Of a stretch of DNA of 57,002 bases, positions 2,772 through 57,002 are shown in pieces. The position numbers and the translations under genes are program-made. The stretch's first letter is position 1. Every line of letters starts with the position of its first letter. Origin of the DNA: a virus (Duplodnaviria; Caudoviricetes); the IMG/VR virus record IMGVR_UViG_3300020045_013711, positions 1 to 57,002 of that record, one strand, 5' to 3'. The notes under the pieces were generated by a model. That model was not told where the DNA came from. It made no database searches and saw only the letters and a program-made list of their open reading frames with translations.

Positions 2772-2773
2772 TT

Positions 2774-3963: not shown

Positions 3964-3976
3964 GCAATTGTAACAA

Positions 3977-4204: not shown

Positions 4205-4286
4205 CTGTTTTTAATTTAATGATTGGTAATTTTTGGAGGTATCAGGTTTAATCGGCGCAACCTCTTATACACGCCGTCCGTTACTA
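4153..4286 (+). repeat. attC-like site D
   Basis: TGCTTATAAC pairs with GTTATAAGCA (3957); arms cgtgtataatagattgc / gcaacctcttatacacg; GTT at 4280. Confidence 0.9.
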
Positions 4287-4697: not shown

Positions 4698-4721
4698 ATT
4701 GTTTGGTGTTAAAAACACAGC

Positions 4722-4855
4722 TAGTAACACATAATTGTAGCAATAGCTGTATGGTTTTTGCATTTAATGTTTTGCGTTTTCTTGTTTTTATCAGTTTTTA
4801 ACCGAATGATAATTTTGTGTCAGCACGCTACTGCTACAATTATCCAACGTTACCT
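4722..4855 (+). repeat. attC-like site E
   Basis: AGCTAGTAAC pairs with GTTACTAGCT (4280); arms ataattgtagcaatagc / gctactgctacaattat; GTT at 4849. Confidence 0.9.
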
Positions 4856-4876
4856 GCAAGTGCTATATTCGTGCTT

Positions 4877-5584: not shown

Positions 5585-5616
5585 AAGATATTTTGTTTTA
5601 AACAAGCCACACCAGC

Positions 5617-5748
5617 AGGTAACAAGTGCTTGAAGAAATGGCTTTATTTGTTTTTAATTTAAAGATTAGTTTTTGTCTGTGATGTCTGTTTTTAATTAGA
5701 TGATTTGGCGTACTTGCACGCCACTTCGTCAAGCACCATACGTTATGG
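5617..5748 (+). repeat. attC-like site F
   Basis: GCAGGTAAC pairs with GTTACCTGC (4849); arms gtgcttgaagaaatggc / gccacttcgtcaagcac; GTT at 5742. Confidence 0.9.
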
Positions 5749-5749
5749 G

Positions 5750-6172
5750 CTATGCAGTTGGAACGGCATAGCTTTGTTTTATATATTTCATCAATAAATT
5801 TTGATTGCTAGAAATCCTTGGATTATAATCAAATCTGATAAAATCAACCAAATTCACTTCTTCGGAAATAGAAATAAAATCTTCTAATGAAATTGTTTTT
5901 ACAAAATCGGCTTTATCCATTCTTAAAGAATAAGTACCGTCTTCTTTGTATTTTTTTATTCTACATTCAATATCAATTACAGTTTGAATTTTATTATTGA
6001 AATGTCCGCTTTGAAGTTCCCAAAAACAGCAGTCGATATCAATCCCAAATTTATCTTCAAAAACTGCAAATGAATCAACACTTAATTTTTGATTTTCAGG
6101 TAATTCAATAGCTAAAAATTGTTCTAATTTTTCTTTTGAAACTTTCTTTACTTTGATGTCTTGTATTTTCAT
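5750..6172 (-). CDS. hypothetical protein (cassette cargo)
   Basis: 140 aa ORF filling the cassette. Confidence 0.7.
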   Translation of the reverse strand: MKIQDIKVKKVSKEKLEQFLAIELPENQKLSVDSFAVFEDKFGIDIDCCFWELQSGHFNNKIQTVIDIECRIKKYKEDGTYSLRMDKADFVKTISLEDFISISEEVNLVDFIRFDYNPRISSNQNLLMKYIKQSYAVPTA

Positions 6173-6205
6173 TTTTGATAATTTTAGTTACCGAAAAAGC
6201 ACAGC

Positions 6206-6340
6206 CCATAACAAGTGATATGAGCGATTTTCGGCATCGTGATTATTGATTTATTGTTTTGTACTTGGTTTGTTCTGTGACAGCGGAAGGATTACGGCTT
6301 ACTACTCCGAAAATCCGCACATATCACTGAACCGTTATCA
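6206..6340 (+). repeat. attC-like site G
   Basis: AGCCCATAAC pairs with GTTATGGGCT (5742); arms agtgatatgagcgattttcgg / ccgaaaatccgcacatatcact (one bulged C); GTT at 6334. Confidence 0.9.
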
Positions 6341-6341
6341 C

Positions 6342-6554
6342 TCATTTTATAGAACGTTTGCTGATAACGAGTTCAGATTTCCGAATGATGCAAATTTCAT
6401 TCTCAAAAGGCGTTTCAAAATTCCATCTATCAAGCGTATATTTTGAGATTCCGATTTCGTGAGTATTGCATAATATTGTTAAATCCCCGTAATAAAAATG
6501 CTTTTCGTTTTCGAGTGCATTTTTAAATTCAATGTGAAATAGTTTTTTATTCAT
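6342..6554 (-). CDS. hypothetical protein (cassette cargo)
   Basis: 70 aa ORF. Confidence 0.6.
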   Translation of the reverse strand: MNKKLFHIEFKNALENEKHFYYGDLTILCNTHEIGISKYTLDRWNFETPFENEICIIRKSELVISKRSIK

Positions 6555-6670
6555 TTTTTTTTATTTTAATAAAAGAAAGGTTTTCGCCTATATTTACTTT
6601 TATATGTTTTTCAATAAAAGGTTTACAATTCTGAACTTCAACTAATTTGTTGCTTTTCCTTTCTTTAAAT

Positions 6671-6883
6671 TTAAACTTTTATTTTGCTAAGTTCTTTTTT
6701 TACTCTGTCACGATATATTTTAAAAAACTCTATGTTGTTATCTATAAAATCTTTAGACTCTGTTCTTTTATCTGATTCCCAATAATCAACTGCGTTTTCA
6801 GTATAAGGAAGTATATTTCTTAATCTATACTCCCCTAATTCTTCATAAATACTTGGTATTTCAGGCTGTTTAAATTTTGACAT
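6671..6883 (-). CDS. hypothetical protein (cassette cargo)
   Basis: 70 aa ORF, coupled to upstream stop. Confidence 0.6.
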   Translation of the reverse strand: MSKFKQPEIPSIYEELGEYRLRNILPYTENAVDYWESDKRTESKDFIDNNIEFFKIYRDRVKKELSKIKV

Positions 6884-7155
6884 TATTTTTTGAAGTTTTT
6901 AAATTCTTCTTCTGTCATTTTTTCAAGTCTTGATTTCAATTCATTTTGATTTTCAATTCCTGATCCAAATCCTTCTATAAATAAACATTTGAACGCTTCT
7001 AATTTTTTGCTTTTGCTTAATTTAGAATATCTCACAAATCCTAAAGAATAGGTTTTTTCAATTTTAGCATTTTCTTCTTTAGTTCCGAAAATCTCAGTCA
7101 ATCCATTTACAATTGCTTCTGCTCCGTTTCTGTCTGTGTAGTAAGTAGTTTTCAT
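6883..7155 (-). CDS. hypothetical protein (cassette cargo)
   Basis: likely start MKTTYYT at 7155. Confidence 0.65.
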   Translation of the reverse strand: MKTTYYTDRNGAEAIVNGLTEIFGTKEENAKIEKTYSLGFVRYSKLSKSKKLEAFKCLFIEGFGSGIENQNELKSRLEKMTEEEFKNFKK

Positions 7156-7177
7156 AATTTCTATTTGTTTGATTTTG

Positions 7178-7209
7178 TTATACAAATATAGTGATTAATA
7201 TTTGTATAA
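7178..7209 (-). promoter_or_regulatory. cassette-internal Bacteroidota -7 promoter (TATATTTG) inside a 12-bp inverted repeat
   Basis: ttatacaaatat-N8-atatttgtataa; caaatata at 7183-7190 is TAnnTTTG on the minus strand. Confidence 0.6.
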
Positions 7210-7265
7210 ACCTAATTAAATTACAAAAATAAATGTTAAAATTTGTAAATGAATAAAAAAACGAG

Positions 7266-7362
7266 TGATAACACGTGCTATGAGCAATATTGCCTATAAC
7301 GTTTAGTGCTACACGACAACTTTTTTCTAAGGCAATACTGCACATAGCACTATCCGTTATCA
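7266..7362 (+). repeat. attC-like site H (short class)
   Basis: GAGTGATAAC pairs with GTTATCACTC (6334); arms gtgctatgagcaatattgcct / aggcaatactgcacatagcac; GTT at 7356. Confidence 0.9.
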
Positions 7363-7368
7363 GGAATA

Positions 7369-7572
7369 CTACGATTGTGGTTTTAAAGATGATTTTAATA
7401 CCATATCATATTCTTCCGGCATTTGAACTAATGGTGTTTGTTTTGAGAACATCGCAAGTATATTTTGTAACAACTCGTTTTGTTCTTTTGAAATACCTAA
7501 TTGTATTATTCTATCTCCTTTTTTCATAATAAGAGCAATATTTCCTTCTTTTTGTTCTTCAAATGTTGCCAT
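7369..7572 (-). CDS. hypothetical protein (cassette cargo)
   Basis: 67 aa ORF filling the cassette. Confidence 0.65.
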   Translation of the reverse strand: MATFEEQKEGNIALIMKKGDRIIQLGISKEQNELLQNILAMFSKQTPLVQMPEEYDMVLKSSLKPQS

Positions 7573-7602
7573 AACATATTTAGTTTTAAATTTCCGTACT
7601 CC

Positions 7603-7738
7603 TGATAACAGTTGCTATAAGAGATTTTCGGTATTGTTTATTAATCGTTTTATTTGTGTGTATTTGCGGTGATTTGGCAAAGCGGAAAGATGGTTTTATA
7701 TTCATCCGAAAATCCTCACATAGCACCAACCGTTAGTA
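7603..7738 (+). repeat. attC-like site I
   Basis: TCCTGATAAC pairs with GTTATCAGGA (7356); arms tgctataagagattttcgg / ccgaaaatcctcacatagca; GTT at 7732. Confidence 0.9.
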
Positions 7739-7744
7739 GCCATT

Positions 7745-8179
7745 TTAATAGCCATCTGCTCTAAATTCAAATTTTTCAAGTTCATTGTATTTATCCCAAA
7801 CCGCTTCAAGTTCTATTTGGAAAACTTCTACAATTTCAATTCTTCTTCTTTCAAAGATTGGTTTGAGTTGTAAAAATGCTTTTGGATAAAGTTGTTCAAA
7901 GTCTCCATACCACATTGCTCCACAAGTCAAATCTTTATTATCAACCATATCAATATATTTTTCATCAAACCATTCATAACCATAGGATTCTTTACTTAAT
8001 TTAGGTTTTGATTTAAAAAAGACGATACAATTATAATGACCTCCGTATATTCCTGCCCAAACTTTTCTAATAGATAATTTTGGAGGTTGAAATTCTGCTT
8101 TCACCACAAAACGGCTACTAACAGCCATTTGGCAAGATTGGGTATCAGGCTTGTCTGAATTATTGTCTTGTGTTTTCAT
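7745..8179 (-). CDS. hypothetical protein (cassette cargo)
   Basis: 144 aa; start inside attC J loop. Confidence 0.7.
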   Translation of the reverse strand: MKTQDNNSDKPDTQSCQMAVSSRFVVKAEFQPPKLSIRKVWAGIYGGHYNCIVFFKSKPKLSKESYGYEWFDEKYIDMVDNKDLTCGAMWYGDFEQLYPKAFLQLKPIFERRRIEIVEVFQIELEAVWDKYNELEKFEFRADGY

Positions 8180-8248
8180 TGTTTAGTTTTTAAGTTAATG
8201 TTTAGGATTTATTTACCCCAAACTACCACAAGTTGCAGGACGTTATGC
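8116..8248 (+). repeat. attC-like site J
   Basis: GGCTACTAAC pairs with GTTAGTAGCC (7732); sequence related to site A; GTT at 8242. Confidence 0.85.
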
Positions 8249-8270
8249 AGGATTGCTACATTTTCGTTTC

Positions 8271-8558
8271 TTAACAAAAATTAGCAATATTGCTAGTAAT
8301 TATATAATGTGATTTACAAGGAAAATTATAATTGCCTACAGAACCAATTAAAGATATTTTTTTACCATCAGAACTCTTCACAATTTCCCAGTTTCTTCCA
8401 CCGCCCAAGGGCGTTATTGTTTTTAATCCACAACCGCATAAGCAATTATGAGTTGCTGTTTTATATTTTTCGGATATGTATAATTTATTTTCCTCAATTA
8501 CTTCTGGAATGACATCGACAAATACAGGTTCAATTGTTACTTTTTTAATCGTTTTCAT
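8271..8558 (-). CDS. Cys/His-rich protein, DUF6527-like (cassette cargo)
   Basis: LYIS..Y.TATHNCLCGCG...SVGNYNFPCKSHY. Confidence 0.7.
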   Translation of the reverse strand: MKTIKKVTIEPVFVDVIPEVIEENKLYISEKYKTATHNCLCGCGLKTITPLGGGRNWEIVKSSDGKKISLIGSVGNYNFPCKSHYIITSNIANFC

Positions 8559-8590
8559 AATAAAATTTAGTTTTAATCATCCACAACCCC

Positions 8591-8724
8591 GCATAACAGT
8601 AGTCTTGAGCTAGTGGCAGTTGGTTTTGTATCCGAAAAGACTCGGATAGTATTAATTATTGTTTTATTTTTGTTGGCACTTATCTTGAATCGAGCCACCA
8701 GCACAAGGCTACAAAACGTTATCA
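8591..8724 (+). repeat. attC-like site K
   Basis: CCCGCATAAC pairs with GTTATGCAGG (8242, one mismatch); arms gtagtcttgagctagtggc / gccaccagcacaaggctac; GTT at 8718. Confidence 0.9.
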
Positions 8725-9084
8725 CTCAGCTTGTGAGCAACTTTGTGTTGAAAGAATTTTAATGGCATTTATTAGTCCATATTCTAAAGCATCTTCATAT
8801 TTTGAAAACAATTCTCCATAACCGTAATTACAATATTTTTCATCATCAACATTATTGATGGAAGTGGTAACACACACATCATATATTACTGGATGATTAT
8901 TTTGACTACTAAATTGATGTGATATTAATACATCTGTATTTTTTTGTTCTCGCAACCATTTTTGTAAAACAGATTGTGTTGGTTTTACTTCATAACATAT
9001 ACATTCAGTAAATCCTCCACAATTACAAGTTTTTAAATCAAAACCTATATTTTTTGCTAATTGAAATGTTTTATCAGAAATCAT
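8722..9084 (-). CDS. hypothetical phage protein (cassette cargo)
   Basis: 120 aa; PTQSVLQKWLRE...YEDALEYGL. Confidence 0.7.
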   Translation of the reverse strand: MISDKTFQLAKNIGFDLKTCNCGGFTECICYEVKPTQSVLQKWLREQKNTDVLISHQFSSQNNHPVIYDVCVTTSINNVDDEKYCNYGYGELFSKYEDALEYGLINAIKILSTQSCSQAE

Positions 9085-9108
9085 AATTTTGCGTTTAAAA
9101 AGCCGAAG

Positions 9109-9241
9109 TGATAACAGCTAGTATATTTCAGCTTGGCATCAGGCTTGATTAATAATTGATTTTGTGTCAGATTTATGGTTTCCCAACCGAAAGATTTGGC
9201 TTACTTGTCCCAGCCGAAATTATACTAGCGAACCGTTAACC
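9109..9241 (+). repeat. attC-like site L
   Basis: AGTGATAAC pairs with GTTATCACT (8718); arms gctagtatatttcagct / agccgaaattatactagc (one bulged T); GTT at 9235. Confidence 0.9.
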
Positions 9242-9607
9242 GTAATTCTCGTAACTATAGTCAATAAAAAGCTCTTCTTCTAAATCAATTTTAAATTGAA
9301 AACCATATCCCCAATGATTATCTCCGTTTTCATTAGCATTATTTCCACTTTCTGAAAATTCTACCCATAAATGACCTTCTGATAACCAGTTTGATAAAGT
9401 TAAATCATCAATTGTATCGCTTGTATCTGTTTGAAGTTCTTTAAAATCATAATTTAACGCTGTATATAATTCCTTTGCAAAATTATATTCTTCATCATTT
9501 TCTTTTAGATATTCTTCATAACTTTCTTGTGTCGGAAATTCTTTTAAATGATTAAGTTTTACTTTATTAAATATCTCTCTGTAATCTATAAAATCAACTA
9601 ATTGCAT
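9236..9607 (-). CDS. hypothetical acidic protein (cassette cargo)
   Basis: 123 aa; TAA stop lies in the GTTA box. Confidence 0.7.
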   Translation of the reverse strand: MQLVDFIDYREIFNKVKLNHLKEFPTQESYEEYLKENDEEYNFAKELYTALNYDFKELQTDTSDTIDDLTLSNWLSEGHLWVEFSESGNNANENGDNHWGYGFQFKIDLEEELFIDYSYENYG

Positions 9608-9617
9608 AATGAACTAC

Positions 9618-9751
9618 GGTTAACAGCTACTACAAAACATTTGGGTAACTGTGATTAATTAAAAAATAGTTTGTACCTGTTTTAATTCGTGAGTACTCGA
9701 ATATTTTAGCTTCCTTAATCCCAAACGATTTGTAGTAGCAAAACGTTACCA
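9618..9751 (+). repeat. attC-like site M
   Basis: TACGGTTAAC pairs with GTTAACCGTA (9235); arms gctactacaaaacatttggg / cccaaacgatttgtagtagc; GTT at 9745. Confidence 0.9.
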
Positions 9752-9757
9752 GTAATG

Positions 9758-9985
9758 CTACCCTCGCATACGGTTAACTCGAATTTGTAAATTTTCACGC
9801 TCTTCAAATAATTCACAAAGCCGTTTATTAAAATCATTATGACTACTTCCTTCTTTGGCTGTAACGTTTAATTCTTGCAATCCATTTAGTTTAATAGTTT
9901 CTCCTTTTTGAAGTCTATAAAGCATATCAATTGAACCGTTTATGATGTCAATTTTATTTTTCATATTTATTAAAAGTCTATTCAT
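9758..9985 (-). CDS. hypothetical protein (cassette cargo)
   Basis: 75 aa ORF filling the cassette. Confidence 0.65.
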   Translation of the reverse strand: MNRLLINMKNKIDIINGSIDMLYRLQKGETIKLNGLQELNVTAKEGSSHNDFNKRLCELFEERENLQIRVNRMRG

Positions 9986-10020
9986 TTTGATAAATTTAGC
10001 ATCCGAAAAAAAAGCACTAC

Positions 10021-10156
10021 TGGTAACAAGTGATATGAGCGATTTTCGGCATTGTGATTATTGATTTATTTTTTTGTACTTGGTAATATTATTTTGTGGC
10101 TGAAATATTGGCGATTCCTACTCCGAAAATCCGCACATATCACTGAACCGTTACCT
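10021..10156 (+). repeat. attC-like site N
   Basis: TACTGGTAAC pairs with GTTACCAGTA (9745); arms identical to site G; GTT at 10150. Confidence 0.9.
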
Positions 10157-10162
10157 GCTATG

Positions 10163-10576
10163 CTACCAATGAACTTCAAAGGGCATTTGTTCTATAATCT
10201 GTTTTCCAATTGGAATTGATAGGATTATATTTTTAAAGTCTTTAAAATCAATTTTTTCTTTTGTCCAAAAAACAGATTTTGTTCCACTTCTATTGTCTTT
10301 ACAACTCCCAGAAATTCCACAAATATAATATCCATCAATTTCTAAATAAGTTATTAATCCTTTGCCTGTATATGGTGGTACAATATCTTCTGGACTAAAC
10401 GGCAAATCTCTAAACCAAACTTTACTTTTCAAAAGCCTTTCTTTTTGCAAAATCCAAAAATAATGCCCTGCACTCGTTAAGTCTGTTCCAAAGTAATCAA
10501 GCACAGCAGGTAACAGCGGTTTTGTGCTATTGCCTAATTCGTCTTGAACCTTATTATTGTTTTGTTCTTCAATCAT
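10163..10576 (-). CDS. hypothetical protein (cassette cargo)
   Basis: likely start MIEEQNN at 10576, inside attC O loop. Confidence 0.7.
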   Translation of the reverse strand: MIEEQNNNKVQDELGNSTKPLLPAVLDYFGTDLTSAGHYFWILQKERLLKSKVWFRDLPFSPEDIVPPYTGKGLITYLEIDGYYICGISGSCKDNRSGTKSVFWTKEKIDFKDFKNIILSIPIGKQIIEQMPFEVHW

Positions 10577-10641
10577 TTGTCTTAAATTTAAAGTTTTAGG
10601 TGTGTTTTTAGGCAACATCACAAAGCCACGAACCGTTAGGG
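10508..10641 (+). repeat. attC-like site O
   Basis: AGCAGGTAAC pairs with GTTACCTGCT (10150); arms gcggttttgtgctattgccta / taggcaacatcacaaagccac; GTT at 10635. Confidence 0.9.
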
Positions 10642-10654
10642 CAAATAGCTCTAT

Positions 10655-11086
10655 TTAGTTTTTCAGAACAACTATCATACTATCGTGCATCCCGCTTTGT
10701 TTTGGTGTATAGATGTTTCCGTTTTCGTCAAAAGTTCCAAATCTTAATCTACCTTTTACGAATCGAATATCTTTTGCGTTTGGCAAGATCTTTTCGTGAA
10801 ATAATTTTGTTGAAGTACTTACCGGAATAAGCAAAACACATACATTCCCTTTTTTGCTTTCTTCAATTGCTCTATCAACAAAAGCTTCTTTTAATTTTCG
10901 GGAATAAGGAGGATTAATAAAATTAGATTTCCCCCATTTTATCAACAATCCATCTTTATCACTTGTAATTTTTTCTTTGTTCAGCGGGCAAGGGTCAAAA
11001 TCAAAATTAAATTCAGCATTCAATTCATCATAAAATTCTTTTGGAGTAGCCCAATTGTCTGAGTGATCTAAATTTCTATTTTTCAT
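10655..11086 (-). CDS. phage DNA N6-adenine methyltransferase (cassette cargo)
   Basis: DNWATP, FDFDPCP, FINPPYS motifs of the short phage Dam family. Confidence 0.85.
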   Translation of the reverse strand: MKNRNLDHSDNWATPKEFYDELNAEFNFDFDPCPLNKEKITSDKDGLLIKWGKSNFINPPYSRKLKEAFVDRAIEESKKGNVCVLLIPVSTSTKLFHEKILPNAKDIRFVKGRLRFGTFDENGNIYTPKQSGMHDSMIVVLKN

Positions 11087-11289
11087 AATTTATTAAATAT
11101 TCGTCTAACAAAATATCCTCTTACAATGCTTGTAATAAAAAACACAGCGGTAATAATTAGATTTTGAGAAAATGTTACAGGAATATTTAATAATGGATAA
11201 ATAATAGCCTGTATTAATATTGAAGTCAGTAACCCGATTATCGTTTGAGATACGCTTTCTATTATTGAATGTTTTTTGGTTTGTTTCAT
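11083..11289 (-). CDS. small membrane protein (cassette cargo)
   Basis: MKQTKKHSIIES, two hydrophobic helices, RGYFVRRIFN. Confidence 0.7.
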   Translation of the reverse strand: MKQTKKHSIIESVSQTIIGLLTSILIQAIIYPLLNIPVTFSQNLIITAVFFITSIVRGYFVRRIFNKL

Positions 11290-11320
11290 AACAACTTTTT
11301 CGTTAAAAATTCACTACTTG

Positions 11321-11411
11321 CCCTAACATATGCTACAAGCTATATGCACGGCTTTAGTTTTTCAGTTCATATTTATTGCTGGCATACAGCTTGTAGCATC
11401 CGCCGTTATCG
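11321..11411 (+). repeat. attC-like site P (short class, last in array)
   Basis: TTGCCCTAAC pairs with GTTAGGGCAA (10635); arms atgctacaagctatatgc / gcatacagcttgtagcat; GTT at 11405. Confidence 0.9.
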
Positions 11412-16786: not shown

Positions 16787-18424
16787 TTATTTGTTATATA
16801 ATTTACTGTACAAATCTACAAAATGCTGCACAACTACACTATTTCCTGCTTGCTTGTATTTTTGTGAATCTGAAACTTCGCTCCTGAAACCTTCATTGAA
16901 ATCCATTAATCTAAAGCATTCAAGGGGAGTCAATTTTCTGATTCTTTGTTGATAATTATGAACAGGTGTTTGTCCTCCTCCCATTCCCATAGCACTTGTT
17001 AAACATGGACTTATTCCATTTGTTTGAAATGGCTGATTATCTTGTAAACCGCCTCTAATCCATAATTCTTTTTTAACTAATACTCCTTGATTACATTTAG
17101 TGTCTAAGGTTTGAGCTACTCCTACTCCTCCTCTTCTCGTCTCGGAGTTAGGATTTGAAAAATTTATAGAATCCTCTTCTGTTGCAATATCGTAGCCTTT
17201 TTTTGTGTTTGCATAAATTACTACAACATTATCTTTCTGAACCGTTGTCAATGCGTTTGAAGTTCCGTTTTCATTTATCTCAAGCATTTGTTCTGTTTCC
17301 AATCCAGAAACCCTGCTTTTTGGATTAATTGGATTTCTCCCTCTGATGGCACCAATTTTATAATCAATTGAAACTTCAACAAACGGCTGCCTATTCCCTC
17401 CCTGCATAGTATTTAAAGTTGGAGAAATTCCTTTGTCTGAATAAATCCTATCGTTTGAATGAATTGGATCATTTAATTGGATAATTTCATCTATATAATA
17501 GTTATCAGTTATAGCCATTTTATAGTATCTTGAAGTTACGCAATCAGCAATATTATCATCTGTTTTAGGATTAAATCTTTGACCAAAATCTCCAGGTTTA
17601 TTCATAAAACCTTTCAGCATTTTATCACTCAAAAAATACTTTTCATCAACAACAGGCTCTAAAACATCTTTCAATCTTTTTTCTAAATGAATTGGCTTTG
17701 GAAAGTTGAAATCATTTTCAGAATCATCACGAATGCCAATGATAAAAATACGTTCACGATTTTGCGGAACACCATGCTCTTTTGCATTTAAAACTTTGTA
17801 GTAAACATGATAAGGAACAGACTCTTCATTTGGGAATATAACCGGATTACCATTTACTGATTTTCCTCCAAGCAAATCAATCCAACGCTGAAAAGTTTTT
17901 CCATTATCATCTGAAAGCAATCCTTTCACATTTTCAAACATAAAATATCTTGGTTTATTTTTGGCAATGAACTCATGTGAATTGTAGAATAAAACACCTC
18001 TCCTATCTTCCTCTCCTTTTCGCTTTCCTGCCAAACTAAAAGATTGACAAGGGCAAGTATGAACTGAAATATCTAAACTTTCTTCTGGAATAACTCTTGA
18101 ATAAACATTCCAAGGATAATAAAAACTAAACAATCTTGCTGCACTTTCTTCATGCTCTTTCACAAACTCCCATTCTTCTTCTGTTGGAGGTTTTAATTTT
18201 TGGTTAACAAATCCACGATAGTAAATATCATCAATCTTTTTTATAATTGGAGTTTGCAATAATTCCATATCTTTTTCAGTTCCGAAATTAAGCAAATATG
18301 TATTTCTAGCATATCGATCCATATCGCAGGCAAAAGAAGTTTCATAATCAACTCCCAAACGTATCAAAGCCTGATCGAATGCACCGACTCCTGAAAAATC
18401 TGAACCAATTTTTATCTTTTCCAT
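16787..18424 (-). CDS. DNA (cytosine-5)-methyltransferase with long variable region
   Basis: FSGVGAF (I), PCQSFS (IV), FENVKG (VI), QNRERIF (VIII), RKLTPLECFRL (IX), KQAGNS (X). Confidence 0.93.
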   Translation of the reverse strand: MEKIKIGSDFSGVGAFDQALIRLGVDYETSFACDMDRYARNTYLLNFGTEKDMELLQTPIIKKIDDIYYRGFVNQKLKPPTEEEWEFVKEHEESAARLFSFYYPWNVYSRVIPEESLDISVHTCPCQSFSLAGKRKGEEDRRGVLFYNSHEFIAKNKPRYFMFENVKGLLSDDNGKTFQRWIDLLGGKSVNGNPVIFPNEESVPYHVYYKVLNAKEHGVPQNRERIFIIGIRDDSENDFNFPKPIHLEKRLKDVLEPVVDEKYFLSDKMLKGFMNKPGDFGQRFNPKTDDNIADCVTSRYYKMAITDNYYIDEIIQLNDPIHSNDRIYSDKGISPTLNTMQGGNRQPFVEVSIDYKIGAIRGRNPINPKSRVSGLETEQMLEINENGTSNALTTVQKDNVVVIYANTKKGYDIATEEDSINFSNPNSETRRGGVGVAQTLDTKCNQGVLVKKELWIRGGLQDNQPFQTNGISPCLTSAMGMGGGQTPVHNYQQRIRKLTPLECFRLMDFNEGFRSEVSDSQKYKQAGNSVVVQHFVDLYSKLYNK

Positions 18425-22574: not shown

Positions 22575-22595
22575 AATTTAACTATTAAATACAAA

Positions 22596-22704
22596 AAATT
22601 CCATAAAGTTGGCAGTGAACTAGGAAGTGCCTTCTAAATGGAATTTATGTTATATTTTACGTTATGTAGTAATGCTTCCTAGTTCATTACAGTTTTCAAA
22701 TTTA
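22596..22704 (-). promoter_or_regulatory. promoter (TAAATTTG) with structured 5' leader
   Basis: interleaved helices, see findings. Confidence 0.5.
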
Positions 22705-27190: not shown

Positions 27191-28084
27191 TTAAAAAAGT
27201 GGTTCTACTTCTTTTTCTGTTGTTGGAACTTTTGGTTCTTTGTTTTCAACTGCAGGTTCTTCAAATTTTGTTTCTTCAATACCTGAAAAATCCAAAGATT
27301 TTTTATTAGCATTGGCAGCAATGTTTTGATTAACATTTTCTTCAACTGAATCAGTTCTTTCAGTTTCCTCCAAAGGATCATATAAAATAGAATCATCTGA
27401 ACTACTAATAAGTAATTTACATGCACGATTGATAACTGTCTTAATTGCCATTTGGTCAGGAAAGTTTTTATGAGCTGGAGATGCTCCTTTTGATCCTCCT
27501 TGGTTCCAAGAAGATTGAATTTGAGTAATATTCATTACTTCCATATCGAAATCACCATTATTCAATTCAAAAACAGCATAAGCTCCTTTTATTTTGCCAC
27601 TTCCAACACTGTCAAGAGTCTGAACATGAGAAATTAATTTTCTTCTGCCTGTTTTTTGGTCTACTTCAAATTCAAAAGTATCTCCATCAAAAATTGCATT
27701 CCCTTTTATGCTTTTAAGATTTCCGTATCTTTTTGCAATGGCAATATTTCCAGCATAAGAAATTGAACATTCCAATTTATCACCATAAGGAATGAAATAA
27801 CATTGCTTTTTGATTGGTGAAACTCCATAAACCACCATTTTCAATAAAGCTTCTGCAATTGATGATTTGTCGCATTTGGCAAGTAAATTGTTTTTTGGAT
27901 CGCTTAGAATTATATAAGCCGATTTTAAAGCGTTTTGAGGATTATAATCTTTTGGAAGTGTTAACTCTCCACTTTCTCTAAAAGAATCGATTTTGTTTAA
28001 CACCTGTACTGAAATATCAGTCTTTACTTTTGCTACTGCCTGTTCGTCTTTTGATGGACCTAAATTTGTGTTTGTTGTACTCAT
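27191..28084 (-). CDS. recT: RecT-family single-strand annealing protein
   Basis: GVSPIKKQCYFIPYG, SYAG, FPDQMAIKTVINRACK. Confidence 0.85.
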   Translation of the reverse strand: MSTTNTNLGPSKDEQAVAKVKTDISVQVLNKIDSFRESGELTLPKDYNPQNALKSAYIILSDPKNNLLAKCDKSSIAEALLKMVVYGVSPIKKQCYFIPYGDKLECSISYAGNIAIAKRYGNLKSIKGNAIFDGDTFEFEVDQKTGRRKLISHVQTLDSVGSGKIKGAYAVFELNNGDFDMEVMNITQIQSSWNQGGSKGASPAHKNFPDQMAIKTVINRACKLLISSSDDSILYDPLEETERTDSVEENVNQNIAANANKKSLDFSGIEETKFEEPAVENKEPKVPTTEKEVEPLF

Positions 28085-29125: not shown

Positions 29126-31129
29126 TTATTCTATTCTCAATACTTCGTCTTGTGGACTTACGTATAGATTTATTATTTGTGAATTTATTTCTATAATTTC
29201 AGAAGTACTTTCCCTGTTATCTAAAAAAATTGGCCCTGAAACTTGATAATGATTACAAAGTACGCTTATAATATCCAAGCCGGAATTAGTTTTTCCTGCG
29301 GTGTTACAGTCCGAAAATAAAACACCATCAACTAAAGCTTCACAAATTTCTTCATTACCACCATTTATCAAATCTTTAAAAAGTCGGAATCGAACATATT
29401 TAAATCTTTGGTTTATTTGTTCCTCAATTGATTCAATTTTAAGTTTATTAAATTTCTCGATCACAAATAAAGTTTTTTCAACTCCTGCGATCTCAGAAGC
29501 AAGGTTTTTTTGCTCAATTTTCAATTCCTCAACCCTTTTATCAACCAATTCATTTTGAGCCTTATTTCGAAGCTTATTTTTTATTTCGTCAATTTCTAAA
29601 CCTAAAGTTCTTTTTTGCTCATTAAGTTCTGAATTATCAATTGAAGGATTTTCTTTAATTGTCGCATTGATTTTTTCTAATTCAATCAATAACGCCTGAT
29701 ATGCTTTATTTTCCAATAAAGCATCATCCAAATCAAAAGCAATAACATTTACATTTTCCAATGCTGATTTTTCAGTTTCAACATTTTGTTGTAAAACAAT
29801 TATTTCAGATTTTAAGTTGGTAACTAATGTTTGTCCTTTTTCAATACGTTCAGTAATTGTTTTTAATTCTGCTTCTGAATTTTCTTTTTCATTTTTTAAT
29901 CTGATTCCAGATTGCTGAATTTCTTCAATTATTTTCGATTGTGAAAGATTGAAGTTTTGTTTTAATTCAGTTTTTTTGGCTTCAATATCAGAAGTTTCAA
30001 AATCACGTTTACAAGTAGGACAAGCACATTGTGAATCATCAAAAATAAATTCTTTTTCTGATGCTGTTTTTAATTCAGCACGTTTGGCCGAAAGTTTTTC
30101 ATCAGTAGATTTAATATCAGTTTCTAAATTTATTTTTTTAGTTTCAAGTGATTTTAAACCATTTTCAGCAATAGTCAAATCATTTTGTTTTAATTCCAAA
30201 GATGATTTAGCCGACTTTAATTTTGAATCATCTGGTTTATTTGAATTAGAATTTTCATCAACCAAATTTTGTTTAATGATGTCAAGTTGGTTTTTAACAC
30301 CATTAGCGGCAAGTTTTTTTGCATTTTCAACTTTCAATAATTCATCAAAAGCAGTTGATTTGTCTTGAATGTCTTTTTCAATATTTGCAAGTGCCAATTC
30401 TTTTTCTTCTTTTTCTGATTCAAGTTTGGCCCAGTCAAAAACTTCTGATTTACCTTTTAACGATTCATCGATTCGAGTTGGAATAAGTTTTAAGTTTTCC
30501 TTTGATTTAACGATAGTATTTGAAACTTGTTTTCGGTAATCTTCCAATTCTTTACCTTGAACCAAATGAGAAATTAATTCTAAATATTCTGGTGAAGTTC
30601 CGGCCAATTCTTCATTTGATGGAGCTGGACAAATTTCAGTCAATACACCTCTTTGTTTTTGCCATGGCAATGAAGTAAAAAACAATGGATTTGTAATCAT
30701 CTTAAAAACTGATTCATCCAAAATAGAATCAACTTTTTTTGCAAAGTCACCGGCTAACATTGGCACTAAATTAAATTCAAAATTTGTTTCGTGTCCTTTG
30801 AATTCTGCAAATTCAGATCCTTTTGATTTTACCCACTTTTCTTTGTAAATTCTTTTCAATGTTATTTCTTCACCATCCACATCTAAAATAATAGTTCCGA
30901 TGTGTTCTTGCTGGTTAAATGAAGTATCTTTTGTGTTTTTAATACTGAAATCCTTTTTTTCATCAGCATTTTTACCAAAAAGAACCCAAAGGAAAGTATT
31001 TACTATTCTGGTTTTTCCAACTCCATTACGGCCAAAAATATTAGTTACATCTTTGTTGAAATTGATTGTAAGGTTTTGGCATCCCATTAAATTTTCAAGA
31101 ATTGCCGTTTTGATTGTTACTTTTTTCAT
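29126..31129 (-). CDS. Rad50/SbcC-like coiled-coil ATPase
   Basis: Walker A GRNGVGKT, CPTC zinc hook, IFLDNRES. Confidence 0.85.
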   Translation of the reverse strand: MKKVTIKTAILENLMGCQNLTINFNKDVTNIFGRNGVGKTRIVNTFLWVLFGKNADEKKDFSIKNTKDTSFNQQEHIGTIILDVDGEEITLKRIYKEKWVKSKGSEFAEFKGHETNFEFNLVPMLAGDFAKKVDSILDESVFKMITNPLFFTSLPWQKQRGVLTEICPAPSNEELAGTSPEYLELISHLVQGKELEDYRKQVSNTIVKSKENLKLIPTRIDESLKGKSEVFDWAKLESEKEEKELALANIEKDIQDKSTAFDELLKVENAKKLAANGVKNQLDIIKQNLVDENSNSNKPDDSKLKSAKSSLELKQNDLTIAENGLKSLETKKINLETDIKSTDEKLSAKRAELKTASEKEFIFDDSQCACPTCKRDFETSDIEAKKTELKQNFNLSQSKIIEEIQQSGIRLKNEKENSEAELKTITERIEKGQTLVTNLKSEIIVLQQNVETEKSALENVNVIAFDLDDALLENKAYQALLIELEKINATIKENPSIDNSELNEQKRTLGLEIDEIKNKLRNKAQNELVDKRVEELKIEQKNLASEIAGVEKTLFVIEKFNKLKIESIEEQINQRFKYVRFRLFKDLINGGNEEICEALVDGVLFSDCNTAGKTNSGLDIISVLCNHYQVSGPIFLDNRESTSEIIEINSQIINLYVSPQDEVLRIE

Positions 31130-52120: not shown

Positions 52121-52191
52121 CGCAAAAGAAAGGATTCGAACCTCTAACTATGGTTTTGGAGACCATTGTTTTACCATTAAACTACTTATGC
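52121..52191 (-). tRNA. tRNA-Trp (CCA anticodon)
   Basis: GCATAAG/CTTTTGC acceptor (one U-U), D arm GTTT/AAAC, anticodon arm ATGGT-CTCCAAA-ACCAT, T arm AGAGG-TTCGAAT-CCTTT; promoter TATATTTG at 52198-52205. Confidence 0.9.
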
Positions 52192-53127: not shown

Positions 53128-53928
53128 TTATACTGGTAAATTTAGTTTAGATAAAGAAGCTGTTGAAACATGACAATAAATTTCAGTAGTTTTTACATTG
53201 GCATGACCTAGGTGCTGTTGAATGTATCTAAGATCAGTTCCAGCTTCTAATAAAGCCGTTGCGTTTGAATGTCTAAGAATATGCATATGATATTCTTTTC
53301 CAATATATTTCTTTACTAATTGGTTACAGCTAGTTTCGCTATATTGATTTGAAAACTGTCCATTAAATAAATATTCTTTTGGTTGGTATTCAGTAAAATA
53401 AATCCTAAGAAGTTCCAAAACTTTTTGACTTAACGGAACAATTCTGTCTTTATTGCCTTTTGAATTTCTAATAAAAATTATCATGCGTTTGCTGTCAATA
53501 TCAGCTATCAAAAGATTAATTACCTCAGATACTCTCATTCCTGTTGAATAAGTCATTGTGAGCAACGCTTTATGTTTGGTATTGGTTATTTTATCCAATT
53601 GCGATAATAGAAACTCCTTCTCAATTATTTTAGGTAACTTTTTTTCCGACCTAGGATATTTTATATATTTAAACTTCATAGGTTGCTTTACAACCATTTC
53701 ATAAAATAATTTCAAAGCCGAAATACTATGAGCCATTGAGTTCCTTGTCTTGAATTGTAATAACCAATTTTTTATAGCTGTTTCATTTATTTTTGAAGGC
53801 TCAGTAAATTGTTCTTGGTTTCGTAAAAATAAATCTACTTGTGCTGAATAGTTTTTAATAGTATTCTCAGCATAATTTTTTAGAGTTAACTCTTTCCGAT
53901 ACAATTCAAGGTACTTAGGAATATTCAT
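53128..53928 (-). CDS. tyrosine recombinase, candidate cassette integrase (no IntI-specific insertion)
   Basis: N-terminal NYAENTIKNY SAM-like domain; YSTGMRVSE, KGNKDR, HILRHS, LGH, TTEIY catalytic residues intact. Confidence 0.92.
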   Translation of the reverse strand: MNIPKYLELYRKELTLKNYAENTIKNYSAQVDLFLRNQEQFTEPSKINETAIKNWLLQFKTRNSMAHSISALKLFYEMVVKQPMKFKYIKYPRSEKKLPKIIEKEFLLSQLDKITNTKHKALLTMTYSTGMRVSEVINLLIADIDSKRMIIFIRNSKGNKDRIVPLSQKVLELLRIYFTEYQPKEYLFNGQFSNQYSETSCNQLVKKYIGKEYHMHILRHSNATALLEAGTDLRYIQQHLGHANVKTTEIYCHVSTASLSKLNLPV

Positions 53929-53929
53929 G

Positions 53930-53990
53930 GTATTAAGTATTAAGTTTATTGATGTTCACACATTTTTAGCACATATAGTAGTTATAGGCA
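53930..53990 (+). other. attI-like primary recombination site (G/TT at 53981)
   Basis: GTTATAGGCA opens cassette 1 but has no attC palindrome upstream; 53 bp from the integrase ATG; gtattaa-gtattaa direct repeat at 53930. Confidence 0.75.
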
Positions 53991-53999
53991 ATACTACGA

Positions 54000-54704
54000 T
54001 TACCATAACGTGAGTTGATTTTTATAATCGACAAATCTTTTTTCTTGATTTTCAAAATATGTAGGATCAAGTTCTGAAGCAGTAAAATCTAATTTTGCTT
54101 TATCAGCCGATATTCTACTACTTCCTGATCCTAAATGTGTATCAAGTATTTTATCGCCTTCTTTTGCAAAGTTTTTAAATATCCAGTCATATAGCTTTAC
54201 AGGTTTTTGCGTTGGGTGTATTCTTTTTTCTTTGTCTTTCATATCGTGTTGTATCATTCCGTGCCAGGCAATTTTAACCGATTTAATGCTGTTTAATAAA
54301 GAACAGTAAGCAAGTTCGCCATCGCTATAAGTTGGCATTGTGACACATTTGTCCCAATAAATTCTGCCTCCAGATAAAAAGTCAAATGGGTAATAATTTA
54401 AACCCCAAATTATTTGTTGTTTAGATACTCTAAATAATTCATCAAAATATTCTTTGGTCGGTACATCGGCATCCCATTTTTGCTCTCCGTATTTTTTTGA
54501 TTTGGAAGCGCTTTTTTTACTTTGTTTTTTATCTGTACTATTTTTAACGTCAGCATTAATTCCGTAAGGCGGGTCAACTACTGCTAAATCAAAATAGTTA
54601 TCGGGGTATTGCTTCATTAATGCCACACAATCCATTAAATAAACCGTACTGCCTATAACAGTGGTTTGAAGCAAGTGGGCATCGGTCTTTAATTCATTAT
54701 TCAT
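54000..54704 (-). CDS. DNA N6/N4 amino-methyltransferase, beta class (first cassette)
   Basis: DLAVVDPPYG, IHPTQKPVKLY, ILDTHLGSGS. Confidence 0.9.
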   Translation of the reverse strand: MNNELKTDAHLLQTTVIGSTVYLMDCVALMKQYPDNYFDLAVVDPPYGINADVKNSTDKKQSKKSASKSKKYGEQKWDADVPTKEYFDELFRVSKQQIIWGLNYYPFDFLSGGRIYWDKCVTMPTYSDGELAYCSLLNSIKSVKIAWHGMIQHDMKDKEKRIHPTQKPVKLYDWIFKNFAKEGDKILDTHLGSGSSRISADKAKLDFTASELDPTYFENQEKRFVDYKNQLTLW

Positions 54705-54784
54705 TTTGTACTTGGATTAATAGTTTATAATTTAATGTTTGGGGCTTATTTCCCCCACCTGCGTCAAGCCACGAAACGTTATAA
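54653..54784 (+). repeat. attC-like site 1
   Basis: TGCCTATAAC pairs with GTTATAGGCA (53981); arms gtggtttgaagcaagtggg / cccacctgcgtcaagccac; GTT at 54778. Confidence 0.9.
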
Positions 54785-54788
54785 CTCA

Positions 54789-55070
54789 TTATACCACCTG
54801 ACGACTATTCTCTTCATCGACAACTTTTATAATCGGAGTTTCATAAACGTGTAATCCAGTAATCGTATTTCCATCATCTAAGAATGTGATGTTTGTAACG
54901 ACCTGAGTTTTATTTTTGCTTTTCTGAACAACTCCAATCCATTTATGATTTTCGCCATCAAAACTTCCATTATCCATTTCAAAGTTTGCAGTTTTCAAAG
55001 CGTTGGATAAAATTTGTCTTAAATTAGTTTCTTGTAATTGTCCTTCTGAGTTTTTAAAATATAGTTCCAT
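54789..55070 (-). CDS. hypothetical protein (cassette cargo)
   Basis: 93 aa ORF filling the cassette. Confidence 0.7.
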   Translation of the reverse strand: MELYFKNSEGQLQETNLRQILSNALKTANFEMDNGSFDGENHKWIGVVQKSKNKTQVVTNITFLDDGNTITGLHVYETPIIKVVDEENSRQVV

Positions 55071-55082
55071 AAAAATAACGAG

Positions 55083-55214
55083 TTATAACAATGCATTGTA
55101 GCTATTATTGCATTGTTTTTTGATTTATAATTCAGTTTGTATTTGTTATAATTTGTGTTTAATCGAAGCATTGTTTTGTCCTTTCAATAACAGCGACAAT
55201 GCTCAACGTTAGCC
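55083..55214 (+). repeat. attC-like site 2
   Basis: GAGTTATAAC pairs with GTTATAACTC (54778); arms gcattgtagctattattg / caataacagcgacaatgc; GTT at 55208. Confidence 0.9.
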
Positions 55215-55219
55215 GTCAG

Positions 55220-55462
55220 TTAAACAAATGGAGTAATCTGATTTCTTTTAAACCACCAACTTTTAGTGTGAAATTGTTCTTCAGGCATATCTCTATATTT
55301 ATAAACTACAACTTCTATAATAGTTCCTTTTTTAAACAATAATTTTGGTTTTTGATTCCAAGATTTAGGTATGTCTTGATAAATATCTTTGTTTACAATA
55401 TATTTCCCTAAACATCCATATTTTTCACGTTCAGACCATGCGATTTCTTTTGAACTTTCCAT
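55220..55462 (-). CDS. hypothetical protein (cassette cargo)
   Basis: 80 aa ORF. Confidence 0.65.
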   Translation of the reverse strand: MESSKEIAWSEREKYGCLGKYIVNKDIYQDIPKSWNQKPKLLFKKGTIIEVVVYKYRDMPEEQFHTKSWWFKRNQITPFV

Positions 55463-55466
55463 GTTC

Positions 55467-55988
55467 TTATTTTAAATTATTTGGAACACTCTCTAAATCT
55501 TTACATTTAAAAAAATTAAGAGTTTTTTCATCATTTTCAAAAAAAACACCTACATTTTTCGCATTTGATAAATCAATATTTTCAATTTTACGAGTCCAAA
55601 AACCCATTCTTGAATCAATTCCTAAATGAAAAGAATATGGATAACTGCTATAAGTATATGCATGTTCTTTTTTAGAATAAGGATTTATTTCTCCTGTTGG
55701 ATAAACAGTTACTTTATCATCAGGAATAGATACAGCAACGATTGTAGCTTTGTAAGATTTTTTACCTATTACAAAATCAACTTCAAAGCCAATAAGATTG
55801 TTTAATTTTTCAAATTTCAACCTATCTTCATTACTTAGTTTTAATGCGTTTTTATAAGCTGTTTTGTTTGGTGCAGAAAAACTGCCCTCCCATTTATATT
55901 CATCAGTATAACCATAATCATATTCCGTAACCGAACGGCTAACAACCGCTTGCTTTTCAGCTTTTTTATTTGTGATTTCTGTTTTCAT
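55467..55988 (-). CDS. hypothetical protein (cassette cargo)
   Basis: 173 aa; start inside attC 3 loop. Confidence 0.7.
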   Translation of the reverse strand: MKTEITNKKAEKQAVVSRSVTEYDYGYTDEYKWEGSFSAPNKTAYKNALKLSNEDRLKFEKLNNLIGFEVDFVIGKKSYKATIVAVSIPDDKVTVYPTGEINPYSKKEHAYTYSSYPYSFHLGIDSRMGFWTRKIENIDLSNAKNVGVFFENDEKTLNFFKCKDLESVPNNLK

Positions 55989-56071
55989 GGTCTGTATTTT
56001 TTAGTATTTGTTATTAGGTAAATATGGTTTTGTGTTTTTTCAAGCCGAAAAACAAGCGACAAACGTTATGA
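55937..56071 (+). repeat. attC-like site 3
   Basis: ACGGCTAAC pairs with GTTAGCCGT (55208); arms cgcttgcttttcagctt / aagccgaaaaacaagcg; GTT at 56065. Confidence 0.9.
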
Positions 56072-56088
56072 GTAAGCTATTTAGCAAC

Positions 56089-56331
56089 TTAATACATATC
56101 TAAATTTGCCGAAATATCATCTCTAATATCGCTTATTATCTTTTTTAAATTTTCTTCTCCTTCGGTGTCTTTTTCAAATTCAAAGGAGTAAAAATTAGTT
56201 GTCAAATCATATTGTAAAATAGGCTTTTTTAATTGAGCTAATTTTGCCAATTCATTCATAAAAGGCTCAGCTCTTTTTAAGAAATCTTCTTTTGCTCTTC
56301 TTAATTGTTCGGATGTTGCAGTTGTATTCAT
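56089..56331 (-). CDS. hypothetical protein (cassette cargo)
   Basis: 80 aa ORF filling the cassette. Confidence 0.65.
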   Translation of the reverse strand: MNTTATSEQLRRAKEDFLKRAEPFMNELAKLAQLKKPILQYDLTTNFYSFEFEKDTEGEENLKKIISDIRDDISANLDMY

Positions 56332-56355
56332 AATTATTGTGGATATCTAGCCTAC

Positions 56356-56487
56356 TCATAACAACAGCTACATTTCAGCGTTTTATTGGTGATTAATTTG
56401 ATTATATTTTTGTGCTTCAATCATTCGGCAAATCCGAGGAATTGTCTGTGTTTGACCACGCCGAAATTGTAGCTGCGGCCGTTAGGG
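56356..56487 (+). repeat. attC-like site 4
   Basis: TACTCATAAC pairs with GTTATGAGTA (56065); arms cagctacatttcagcg / cgccgaaattgtagctg (one bulged T); GTT at 56481. Confidence 0.9.
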
Positions 56488-56500
56488 ATAACCGCCTATG

Positions 56501-56764
56501 TTAGCCCTTAAATTCAGGTAAAATTCCTAAATAGAAAAATTTACCATTAATACTATTTACAGTCATATATGTGAACACTTTTTTGCCTTTATGATTTTCA
56601 AAAGAATCACAAGCGTCACCGCCCTGCTGGGCATATTCACTTGAATAATGAGTTGGCACACATTCTAAAATATTAAGATATAATGCTTCATCTATTTCAC
56701 AAGGTTCGTTTAGATATTTATCCATATCTAAATTTGATTTTTTCCAATTTTTTAATGTTTTCAT
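56501..56764 (-). CDS. hypothetical protein (cassette cargo)
   Basis: 87 aa ORF filling the cassette. Confidence 0.7.
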   Translation of the reverse strand: MKTLKNWKKSNLDMDKYLNEPCEIDEALYLNILECVPTHYSSEYAQQGGDACDSFENHKGKKVFTYMTVNSINGKFFYLGILPEFKG

Positions 56765-56797
56765 AATTTAAAATTTGATTAATAATTCGTGGTATAT

Positions 56798-56889
56798 CCC
56801 TAACAGCGTATATAAGAGATACGCTAGACGTTCAGTTTTTCAGTTTATATTTTGGGGCGGCGTACCTCCCATATACGCAACCGTTATAG
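56798..56889 (+). repeat. attC-like site 5 (short class)
   Basis: TATCCCTAAC pairs with GTTAGGGATA (56481); arms gcgtatataagagatacgct / ggcgtacctcccatatacgc; GTT at 56883. Confidence 0.9.
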
Positions 56890-57002
56890 CACATTGCTAC
56901 ATTTACGTTTTTATAAGTTAATTTTTCAACTCTATTTCTGGTTTTTTATTACCTAAGTAATTACATTTAAGATATTTTAATTCTAACGCTTTACCTTTTC
57001 TT

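Follow-up and report, generated by a model that had tools for sequence, protein, structure and literature searches.

We identified an integron-like array of swappable single-gene cassettes occupying about a quarter of a flavobacterial phage genome, next to a small Xer-type tyrosine recombinase that is not a classical integron integrase, and comparison with relatives suggests that such arrays commonly carry DNA-modification genes. The analysed window is a 57,002-nucleotide tailed-phage genome (IMG/VR record IMGVR_UViG_3300020045_013711, taken at its full length), and the original prediction that it carries a phage-borne platform made of a recombinase, an attI-like site and attC-delimited cassettes is supported by comparative data. 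We consider the most likely explanation, with a probability of roughly 0.84, to be a site-specific gene-cassette platform that works like an integron but is run by a recombinase other than IntI. We found no description of this system in the literature searched.

The putative cassette recombinase is encoded by a 266-aa ORF at 53128-53928 (minus strand), which matches PF00589 at 8.3e-36 and includes an N-terminal SAM-like domain. It is the only PF00589 match in the window, and no PF00239 match was found. Based on NCBIfam models, the protein falls below every relevant cut-off (184.8/220 for XerA_Arch, 163.4/329.6 for XerD, 162.9/335 for XerC, 147.4/265 for the integron integrase TIGR02249, and 86.4/435 for NF011946), and scores nearer XerA, XerD and XerC than IntI. 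When aligned to VchIntIA (2a3v), residues 10-174 of the phage protein align with 9-177 and residues 209-259 with 260-310, so that the phage protein has 34 aa where IntI has 82 and lacks the IntI-specific insertion. Hence, we refer to the element as integron-like rather than as a member of the integron family. The short two-domain architecture is that of Xer enzymes, but this is not a housekeeping gene: it is phage-borne, only 1 of 301 Flavobacterium genomes searched has a close homologue at E<=1e-75, and it is tied to cassette arrays and not to a dif site.

The attI-like site (53929-53984, minus strand) lies immediately upstream of the recombinase gene. Its lone motif GTTATAGGCA starts at 53981, 53 nt from the ATG at 53928, with no hairpin preceding it, and its conserved core spans 53970-53984 (TAAC-TACTATATGTG on the minus strand), ending in GTTA at 53981-53984, with a proposed crossover between 53981 and 53982 (G/TTA on the plus strand). 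Homology to about 30 related loci stops at 53984/53985, and a TAAC-TAYTATATRTA motif lies 51-55 nt before the ATG in most loci, with variable sequence beyond TAAC. A pattern search recovered this motif in 64 of 76 loci. The attI-like site thus forms the boundary between a conserved platform and cassettes that differ between loci.

Beyond this boundary, we identified 21 TAAC...GTTA hairpin sites, all on the minus strand, with 5 in 54656-56886 and 16 in 1828-11408, falling in two size classes of about 84-91 nt and about 125-132 nt. Site 1 (54656-54781; 100.5 bits with a covariance model built from these and related sites) closes the cassette 53982-54778, which carries an N6_N4 DNA methylase (54000-54704), and its flank matches that of the attI-like site at 13 of 14 positions. 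It is followed by site 2 (55086-55211; 80.6 bits, not in the training set; cassette ORF 54789-55070), site 3 (55940-56068; 58.8 bits; ORFs 55220-55462 and 55467-55988), site 4 (56359-56484; 73.9 bits; ORF 56089-56331), and site 5 (56801-56886, short class; ORF 56501-56764), which the covariance model misses. The model also misses site 6 (1828-1952), which overlaps the start of a DUF1643 protein with a sub-threshold Dam-like C-terminus. Site 7 (3352-3435, short class) closes a three-ORF cassette (1953-3432) including an HTH/Xre-like ORF at 2205-2771, and is followed by sites 8 (3829-3960), 9 (4156-4283), 10 (4725-4852), 11 (5620-5745; cassette with a Dam-family methyltransferase at 4877-5605), 12 (6209-6337), 13 (7269-7359, short class, closing cassette 6335-7356), 14 (7606-7735), 15 (8119-8245), 16 (8594-8721), 17 (9112-9238), 18 (9621-9748), 19 (10024-10153) and 20 (10511-10638). 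Site 21 (11324-11408, short class; cassette with a phage N6A-methyltransferase at 10655-11086) marks the distal end of the array, and its right flank has no partner. If the record ends are joined, the array spans about 14.4 kb, rather than the about 13 kb of the original prediction.

An indication that these are cassettes comes from their flanks. The sequence following each GTTA is the reverse complement of the sequence preceding the next TAAC, with 10-13 of 14 matches in 20 of 21 junctions (13 of them at 13 of 14) and a constant A/C mismatch at position 11, whereas the two flanks of a single site match at only 5-10 of 14 positions. This is the signature of circular cassettes. Across the window, 13 flank pairs with 9 of 10 matches lie in the array and 1 lies elsewhere, while twenty shuffles gave 0-3 pairs. 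The covariance model recovered 18 of the 21 sites, all on the minus strand, and nothing in the other ~42 kb at E<=1, although ten of these 18 sites were in the training set. The flank chain breaks across the record ends (5 of 14 matches), where the segments 56887-57002 and 1-1827 (both minus strand) together hold about 5 ORFs (including 2-361, 358-549, 552-905, about 915-1133, and the body of 1130-1885) and no detected site. The record is linear with no end repeat, and this region may be a fused or degenerate cassette region, or the assembly may be missing sequence here. Positions 929-1130 match the locus L038 at 87%, next to an attC there.

We next examined 80 related viral loci. Of the 181 flank pairs matching at all 9 positions other than flank position 11, 179 lie upstream of the recombinase and 2 downstream, with 490 kb of available sequence upstream and 653 kb downstream, and position 11 is A versus G in 175 of the 181. 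Similarly, all 219 covariance-model hits at E<=0.001 (about 81 of which were training sequences) lie upstream of the recombinase and on its sense strand, although some loci with long upstream sequence have few sites or none. Among 136 unique sites from relatives, TAAC-A was found in 135 and C-GTTA in 133. Compensatory changes across 94 sites were observed at 14 of 15 consensus pairs, with a G.U pair conserved in 82 of the 94, and the minus strand is the more stable fold in 107 of 129 sites (p=4.5e-18). On this strand the R-box and inner helix are continuous and each holds a conserved G.T wobble, while on the plus strand the same positions are A.C mismatches.

Cassette content is almost entirely different between loci: of 261 cassette bodies in 67 loci, only one true cross-locus cluster forms, even among loci whose recombinases are 86-88% identical. 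The corresponding cassette (6335-7356 in the window) is present in two other arrays, L045, where it sits directly at attI, and L021, and in each case homology starts exactly at GTTA and ends exactly at the next GTTA. Since only this cassette is shared between arrays, most of the proposed mobility rests on diversity. Additional evidence comes from ten near-identical isolates of Polaribacter phage Freya, which carry a recombinase only 33% identical to that of the window and sites that differ in sequence. The seven isolates compared (1, 2, 5, 6, 8 and 9 against 10), with 99.9-100% identical flanks, differ only by blocks bounded by TTGTTnnCnAAC sites and the attI-like site, with indel ends falling exactly after AAC.

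In plus-strand terms, a cassette consists of TTA and a ~10-nt flank, the ORF on the minus strand, the complementary flank and TAAC, a hairpin, and C-G, with the crossover placed in the GTTA at the right end of each site. The longest frame is on the recombinase-sense strand in 236 of 257 unique bodies and covers a median 92% of the body, while in 17 of 257 the longer frame is on the other strand. Cassettes tend to travel with the hairpin upstream of their ORF, although linkage of a site to the ORF on its left is a tendency and not a rule (extensions over 20 nt: 27 left, 10 right, of which 4 are artefacts). In the absence of biochemical or read-level evidence for circles, we infer that the recombinase excises cassettes as circles (attC x attC or attC x attI) and inserts them at attI, acting on the folded minus (bottom) strand through one strand exchange that replication resolves, as in integrons. 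Single-stranded recombination in particular remains an inference, as the enzyme lacks the domain that IntI uses for folded attC (PMC4792948). It is also the only recombinase of the phage, and could also, or instead, serve lysogeny.

Alternative explanations appear unlikely but deserve consideration. The hairpins could be RNA elements of the polycistronic minus-strand transcript, such as processing, stability or attenuation signals, with cassette turnover resulting from ordinary phage mosaicism and the recombinase being only a lysogeny integrase. The minus strand is indeed also the mRNA strand, so that the wobbles and covariation fit an RNA structure as well, the hairpins sit just upstream of each ORF, and related recombinases in phages Freya, Leef and Ingeline were read as markers of a temperate lifestyle (PMC8776804). 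However, the 14-nt flank complementarity spans whole ORFs and is restored only in a circle, breakpoints fall exactly at GTTA or, in Freya, after AAC, the sites occur only beside this recombinase family with fixed polarity, and no Rfam family matches them. Cassettes could instead be shuffled by homologous or microhomology recombination between repeated sites without any site-specific enzyme, given that the phage encodes RecT-like and SbcC-like proteins and that sites fall into sequence families shared by unrelated cassettes. This is similarly doubtful, as only about 5 nt around the crossover are conserved, and attI, which has no hairpin and shares only TAAC with the sites, is nonetheless the sharp boundary in most loci with enough upstream sequence. 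The strict association with, and polarity towards, the recombinase gene would also be left unexplained.

A canonical phage-borne integron is the least likely alternative. The layout, with attI next to the recombinase gene, compact and mostly single-ORF cassettes each ending in an imperfect palindrome with AAC...GTT cores, a G/TT crossover, cassette starts complementary to their own inverse core, strand-biased structures and a hyper-diverse cassette pool, is that of integrons, and phage-borne canonical integrons and attC clusters are already in print (PMC9892861). However, this reading is refuted on the tested defining features of the integrase. In addition, ORFs read toward attI, so that the attC lies upstream of its ORF, the R-box helix is about 14 bp with a fixed G.T/A.C position, and the internal loop is 1 nt against about 5 nt. 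The phage sequences previously reported, including a Polaribacter phage and with methyltransferase cargo, were found with IntegronFinder and HattCI and classed as lacking an integrase or as fragments of bacterial integrons, and the present non-IntI system is not among them in the main text of that study. P12002L has no annotated integrase, and its only hit to our site model is weak (E=0.022).

Importantly, integron-type cassette capture is thought to depend on the IntI-specific domain (PMC4792948), and canonical integrons are reported as rare in Bacteroidetes (PMC9024848). Against this background, an abundant family giving the same genetic outcome with a plain Xer-type enzyme and a differently built attC would make the evolution of single-strand recombination from Xer-like ancestors directly testable. 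It is possible, and on balance slightly more likely than not, that these elements represent a second lineage of integrons, either separate from or ancestral to IntI, in which strand choice on folded single-stranded attC hairpins is encoded by two conserved G.T wobbles in place of extrahelical bases. In this view, the system would be widespread in Bacteroidota phages and serve as an exchangeable counter-defence gene bank, the mirror image of bacterial chromosomal integrons that store anti-phage defences. While the element is carried mainly by Bacteroidota phages, a second architecture, with the recombinase gene flipped, occurs in bacterial chromosomes and MAG contigs.

Annotated cargo consists mainly of DNA-modification genes: among the 150 longest of 191 cassette ORFs, we identified 15 DNA methylases, 3 PAPS_reduct, 1 Mom and 1 TAGT, and the window itself has three clear methylase cassettes in addition to the DUF1643 ORF. 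This recognisable cargo, mostly orphan DNA methylases and other DNA-modification enzymes, fits rapid escape from host restriction. We infer that the array is a phage accessory and counter-defence gene bank, exchanged among co-infecting phages, prophages and chromosomal arrays of Bacteroidota. The finding would also reinterpret "integrase" genes in flavobacterial phages that have been read as lysogeny markers (PMC8776804). Cultured systems exist, and Freya phages on Polaribacter already show natural cassette indels.

The window is a complete, linear IMG/VR virus record of 57,002 bases with a CheckV completeness estimate of 100%, in which all long ORFs lie on the minus strand. PHROG matches identified a major head protein, tape measure, large terminase, portal, RecT-like protein (27191-28084, minus strand), and SbcC-like protein (29126-31129, minus strand), so the record represents a tailed phage. 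The SbcC-like protein resembles a palindrome-endonuclease subunit, and a hairpin-processing nuclease is notable in a genome that carries 21 long palindromes. When the region was compared at the DNA level to 50,697 phage records, the nearest ones were from Flavobacterium, Nonlabens, Polaribacter, and Tenacibaculum, and only methylase genes matched. An Rfam search identified only a tRNA gene (52121-52191, minus strand, 69.8 bits), located between the recombinase module and the head genes, and no family on the hairpin sites.

The ORF at 53128-53928 (minus strand, 266 aa) encodes a tyrosine recombinase, based on a match to PF00589 at 8.3e-36 and a SAM-like N domain. It is the only one in the record, and no serine recombinase was found. 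A lone GTTATAGGCA starts at 53981, 53 nt from the ATG, with no hairpin before it. Using a simple detector for TAAC...GTTA motifs located 45-175 nt apart and with complementary arms, we recovered the sites of the original prediction, namely 5 in 54656-56886 and 16 in 1828-11408. An additional candidate hairpin outside of the array (22579-22664, detector score 21) was not supported by the covariance model described below. Two related sites, at 1828-1952 and 8119-8245, overlap the 5' ends of their ORFs, with an in-frame ATG inside the site, the R'' box encoding part of the N-terminus (MAVS...), and a similar upstream extension in both.

The most informative regularity of this array is that the 14 nt starting at each right-end GTTA are the reverse complement of the 14 nt ending at the next site's TAAC. 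This holds at 10-13 of 14 positions in 20 of 21 junctions, and at 13 of 14 in 13 of them, including the lone GTTA at 53981 paired with the first site, while a site's own two flanks match at only 5-10 of 14 positions. This is the classical signature of integron cassettes, because the pairing is completed only when the cassette is a circle. The single mismatch is always at flank position 11, with A after GTTA and C before TAAC. Within the window, 13 array pairs and one stray pair match at 9 of 10 positions, whereas twenty shuffles gave 0-3 pairs. The only break in the chain is across the record ends (5 of 14), where five ORFs lie without a detected site (56887-57002 and 1-1827). If the record ends were joined, the ORF at 2-361 would continue for about 9 codons, but given the broken flank chain, either sequence is missing from the assembly or cassettes have fused. 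The small ORF at about 915-1133 in this region is a separate cassette next to an attC in the related locus L038.

To evaluate whether this organization is conserved, we used the recombinase to gather 80 viral loci at 46-94% identity. In these loci, 181 flank pairs match at all nine positions other than position 11, of which 179 lie upstream of the recombinase and 2 downstream, even though more downstream sequence was available (653 kb against 490 kb), and position 11 is A/G in 175 of the 181. A covariance model built from 94 flank-defined sites found 18 of the 21 sites in the window, 10 of these 18 being training sequences, and nothing in the remaining ~42 kb. Across the 80 loci, all 219 hits (about 81 of which were training sequences) are on the recombinase-sense strand, and all lie upstream when compared with the recombinase positions. 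Homology between the window and about 30 loci runs through the recombinase gene and stops at 53984/53985, the last base of the lone GTTA. In recombinase-sense orientation, the loci read variable sequence, then TAAC, then TAYTATATRTA, which lies 51-55 nt before the ATG in most of them. A regular expression recovered this motif in 64 of 76 loci with at least 150 nt upstream, and several of the 12 misses carry visible variants. This is an attI-like site, with a conserved half next to the enzyme gene and a cassette-specific half beyond the crossover.

Cassette content is highly diverse: of 261 cassette bodies in 67 loci (median 352 nt), only one true cross-locus cluster forms at 75% identity or more, and loci with 86-88% identical recombinases share no cassettes. 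The one shared cassette is nevertheless informative. It corresponds to window 6334-7359, and is the first cassette at attI in one related viral locus (L045) and an internal cassette in another (L021). In all three arrays, homology begins exactly at GTTA and ends exactly at the next GTTA, while the sequences outside are unrelated. This places the crossover at the right-end G/TTA on the plus strand, and shows that a cassette carries the site on its right, which is the hairpin upstream of its ORF. In addition, in the viral locus L005, the recombinase and array sit between homologues of window ~16.1-16.6 kb and ~21.5 kb, a different place in a related backbone, so the whole module may itself move.

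A parallel was found in cultured phages. Ten Polaribacter phage Freya isolates, which range from 43,978 to 48,920 bp, encode a recombinase 33% identical over 98% of its length. These isolates of one phage species differ by 0.3-4.9 kb blocks of small ORFs beside the integrase. We compared Freya_1, 2, 5, 6, 8, and 9 with Freya_10, and found that the flanks are 99.9-100% identical, that Freya_1, 2, 5, and 9 lack nested blocks ending at the attI-like site (about 45 nt before the ATG), that Freya_8 lacks an internal block, and that Freya_6 carries a different, unique 441-nt segment. Every end maps to the break point after a TTGTTnnCnAAC motif. In the paper describing these phages, the integrase appears to have been read only as a sign of a temperate lifestyle (PMC8776804).

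Across 136 unique flank-defined sites, three positions are nearly invariant: A follows TAAC in 135, T is at position +7 in 134, and C precedes GTTA in 133. The consensus has two helices and an asymmetric internal loop of 1 nt against about 5 nt. On the minus strand, 14 of 15 consensus pairs show compensatory changes, and one G.U pair is conserved in 82 of 94 sites. With DNA energy parameters, the minus strand folds more stably in 107 of 129 sites (p=4.5e-18), and it also holds twice as many G.T pairs. Both the R-box position 11 and the inner helix are thus G.T on the minus strand and A.C on the plus strand. We infer that the minus strand is the recombined strand, corresponding to the integron "bottom" strand, and that these wobbles play the strand-marking role of extrahelical bases.

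Importantly, however, the minus strand is also the mRNA strand, and the same structural data fit an RNA structure, although this alternative does not explain the flank chain or the exact breakpoints. We also considered a crossover at the left-end TAAC, which would give canonical ORF-then-attC cassettes. This model was rejected because the lone half-site beside the recombinase is the conserved boundary, because the shared cassette includes the site on its right and not the one on its left, because site-plus-flank homologies extend mostly leftward (27 leftward against 10 rightward, of which 4 are artefacts), and because the Freya indel ends lie directly after AAC.

The enzyme itself scored below the cut-off of each NCBIfam model considered, namely XerA_Arch (184.8 against 220), XerD (163.4 against 329.6), XerC (162.9 against 335), and the integron integrase TIGR02249 (147.4 against 265). 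The best solved relatives are XerA, then XerD, then VchIntIA. Compared to VchIntIA, the protein has 34 residues where IntI has 82, so the IntI-specific insertion is absent, while IntI is described as having a dedicated domain for its single-strand pathway (PMC4792948, PMC8138268). The element works like an integron, but does not satisfy the integron criteria tested for the integrase and for cassette polarity. Phage-borne canonical integrons and attC clusters have been published (PMC9892861), and IntegronFinder 2.0 reports few integrons in Bacteroidetes (PMC9024848). In Polaribacter phage P12002L, a published CALIN, no integrase is annotated, and we found no flank-chain pairs and only one weak model hit (E=0.022), so that it is not this family at our sensitivity. 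We found no description of a Xer-type or non-IntI cassette platform in phages or Bacteroidota in literature searches that did not cover subscription journals or supplementary files, including the supplementary tables of PMC9892861, which could list further flavobacterial phages. Taken together, we consider this to be a real and widespread integron-like platform with a non-IntI recombinase, whose action on these sites is inferred.

The recombinase family is large, with more than 120 clusters at 69-90% identity, almost all 267 aa long and mostly labelled XerD. It is rare in host genomes, with only 1 of 301 Flavobacterium genomes searched having a close homologue at E<=1e-75. A 71%-identical recombinase is recorded on a 3.34-Mb Flavobacterium columnare contig. 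The same architecture occurs on contigs of Flavobacterium, Bacteroidales, Chitinophagaceae, and Ignavibacteria MAGs. A second architecture occurs beside recombinases that are 43-45% identical, in which the sites lie downstream of the recombinase gene on the opposite strand, which means that the recombinase gene is flipped. It was found in Daejeonella oryzae, Croceivirga radicis, and several MAG contigs, one a chromosome-level Flavobacteriaceae assembly, and the flank rule and the A/G position hold there too. In five bacterial genome loci (L097, L099, L100, L104, and L107), such arrays of the same site family are convergent with the recombinase, some sites use CAAC/GTTG cores, and in L099 a lone half-site lies 83 nt after the stop codon. 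Acidobacterial multi-copy homologues at 37-41% identity have no sites.

Cassettes are compact: in 236 of 257 unique bodies, the longest frame is on the recombinase-sense strand, and it covers a median 92% of the body. We scanned the 150 longest of 191 cassette ORFs from relatives, most of which have no Pfam match, and the matches obtained are dominated by DNA modification, including 8 N6_N4 methylases, 5 C5 methylases, 2 D12 methylases, 3 PAPS_reduct, 1 Mom, and 1 TAGT. The window carries three clear methylase cassettes, a DUF1643 ORF with a sub-threshold Dam-like C-terminus, and an HTH protein. A 545-aa DNA methyltransferase (16787-18424, minus strand) lies outside the array, so not all modification genes are cassettes. 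Finally, the cassette at 1953-3435 includes three ORFs, encoding 61 aa, a 188-aa HTH/Xre-like protein with weak antitoxin-family hits, and 131 aa, and could be a toxin-antitoxin-like or regulatory module; its flank match has one extra mismatch (12 of 14).
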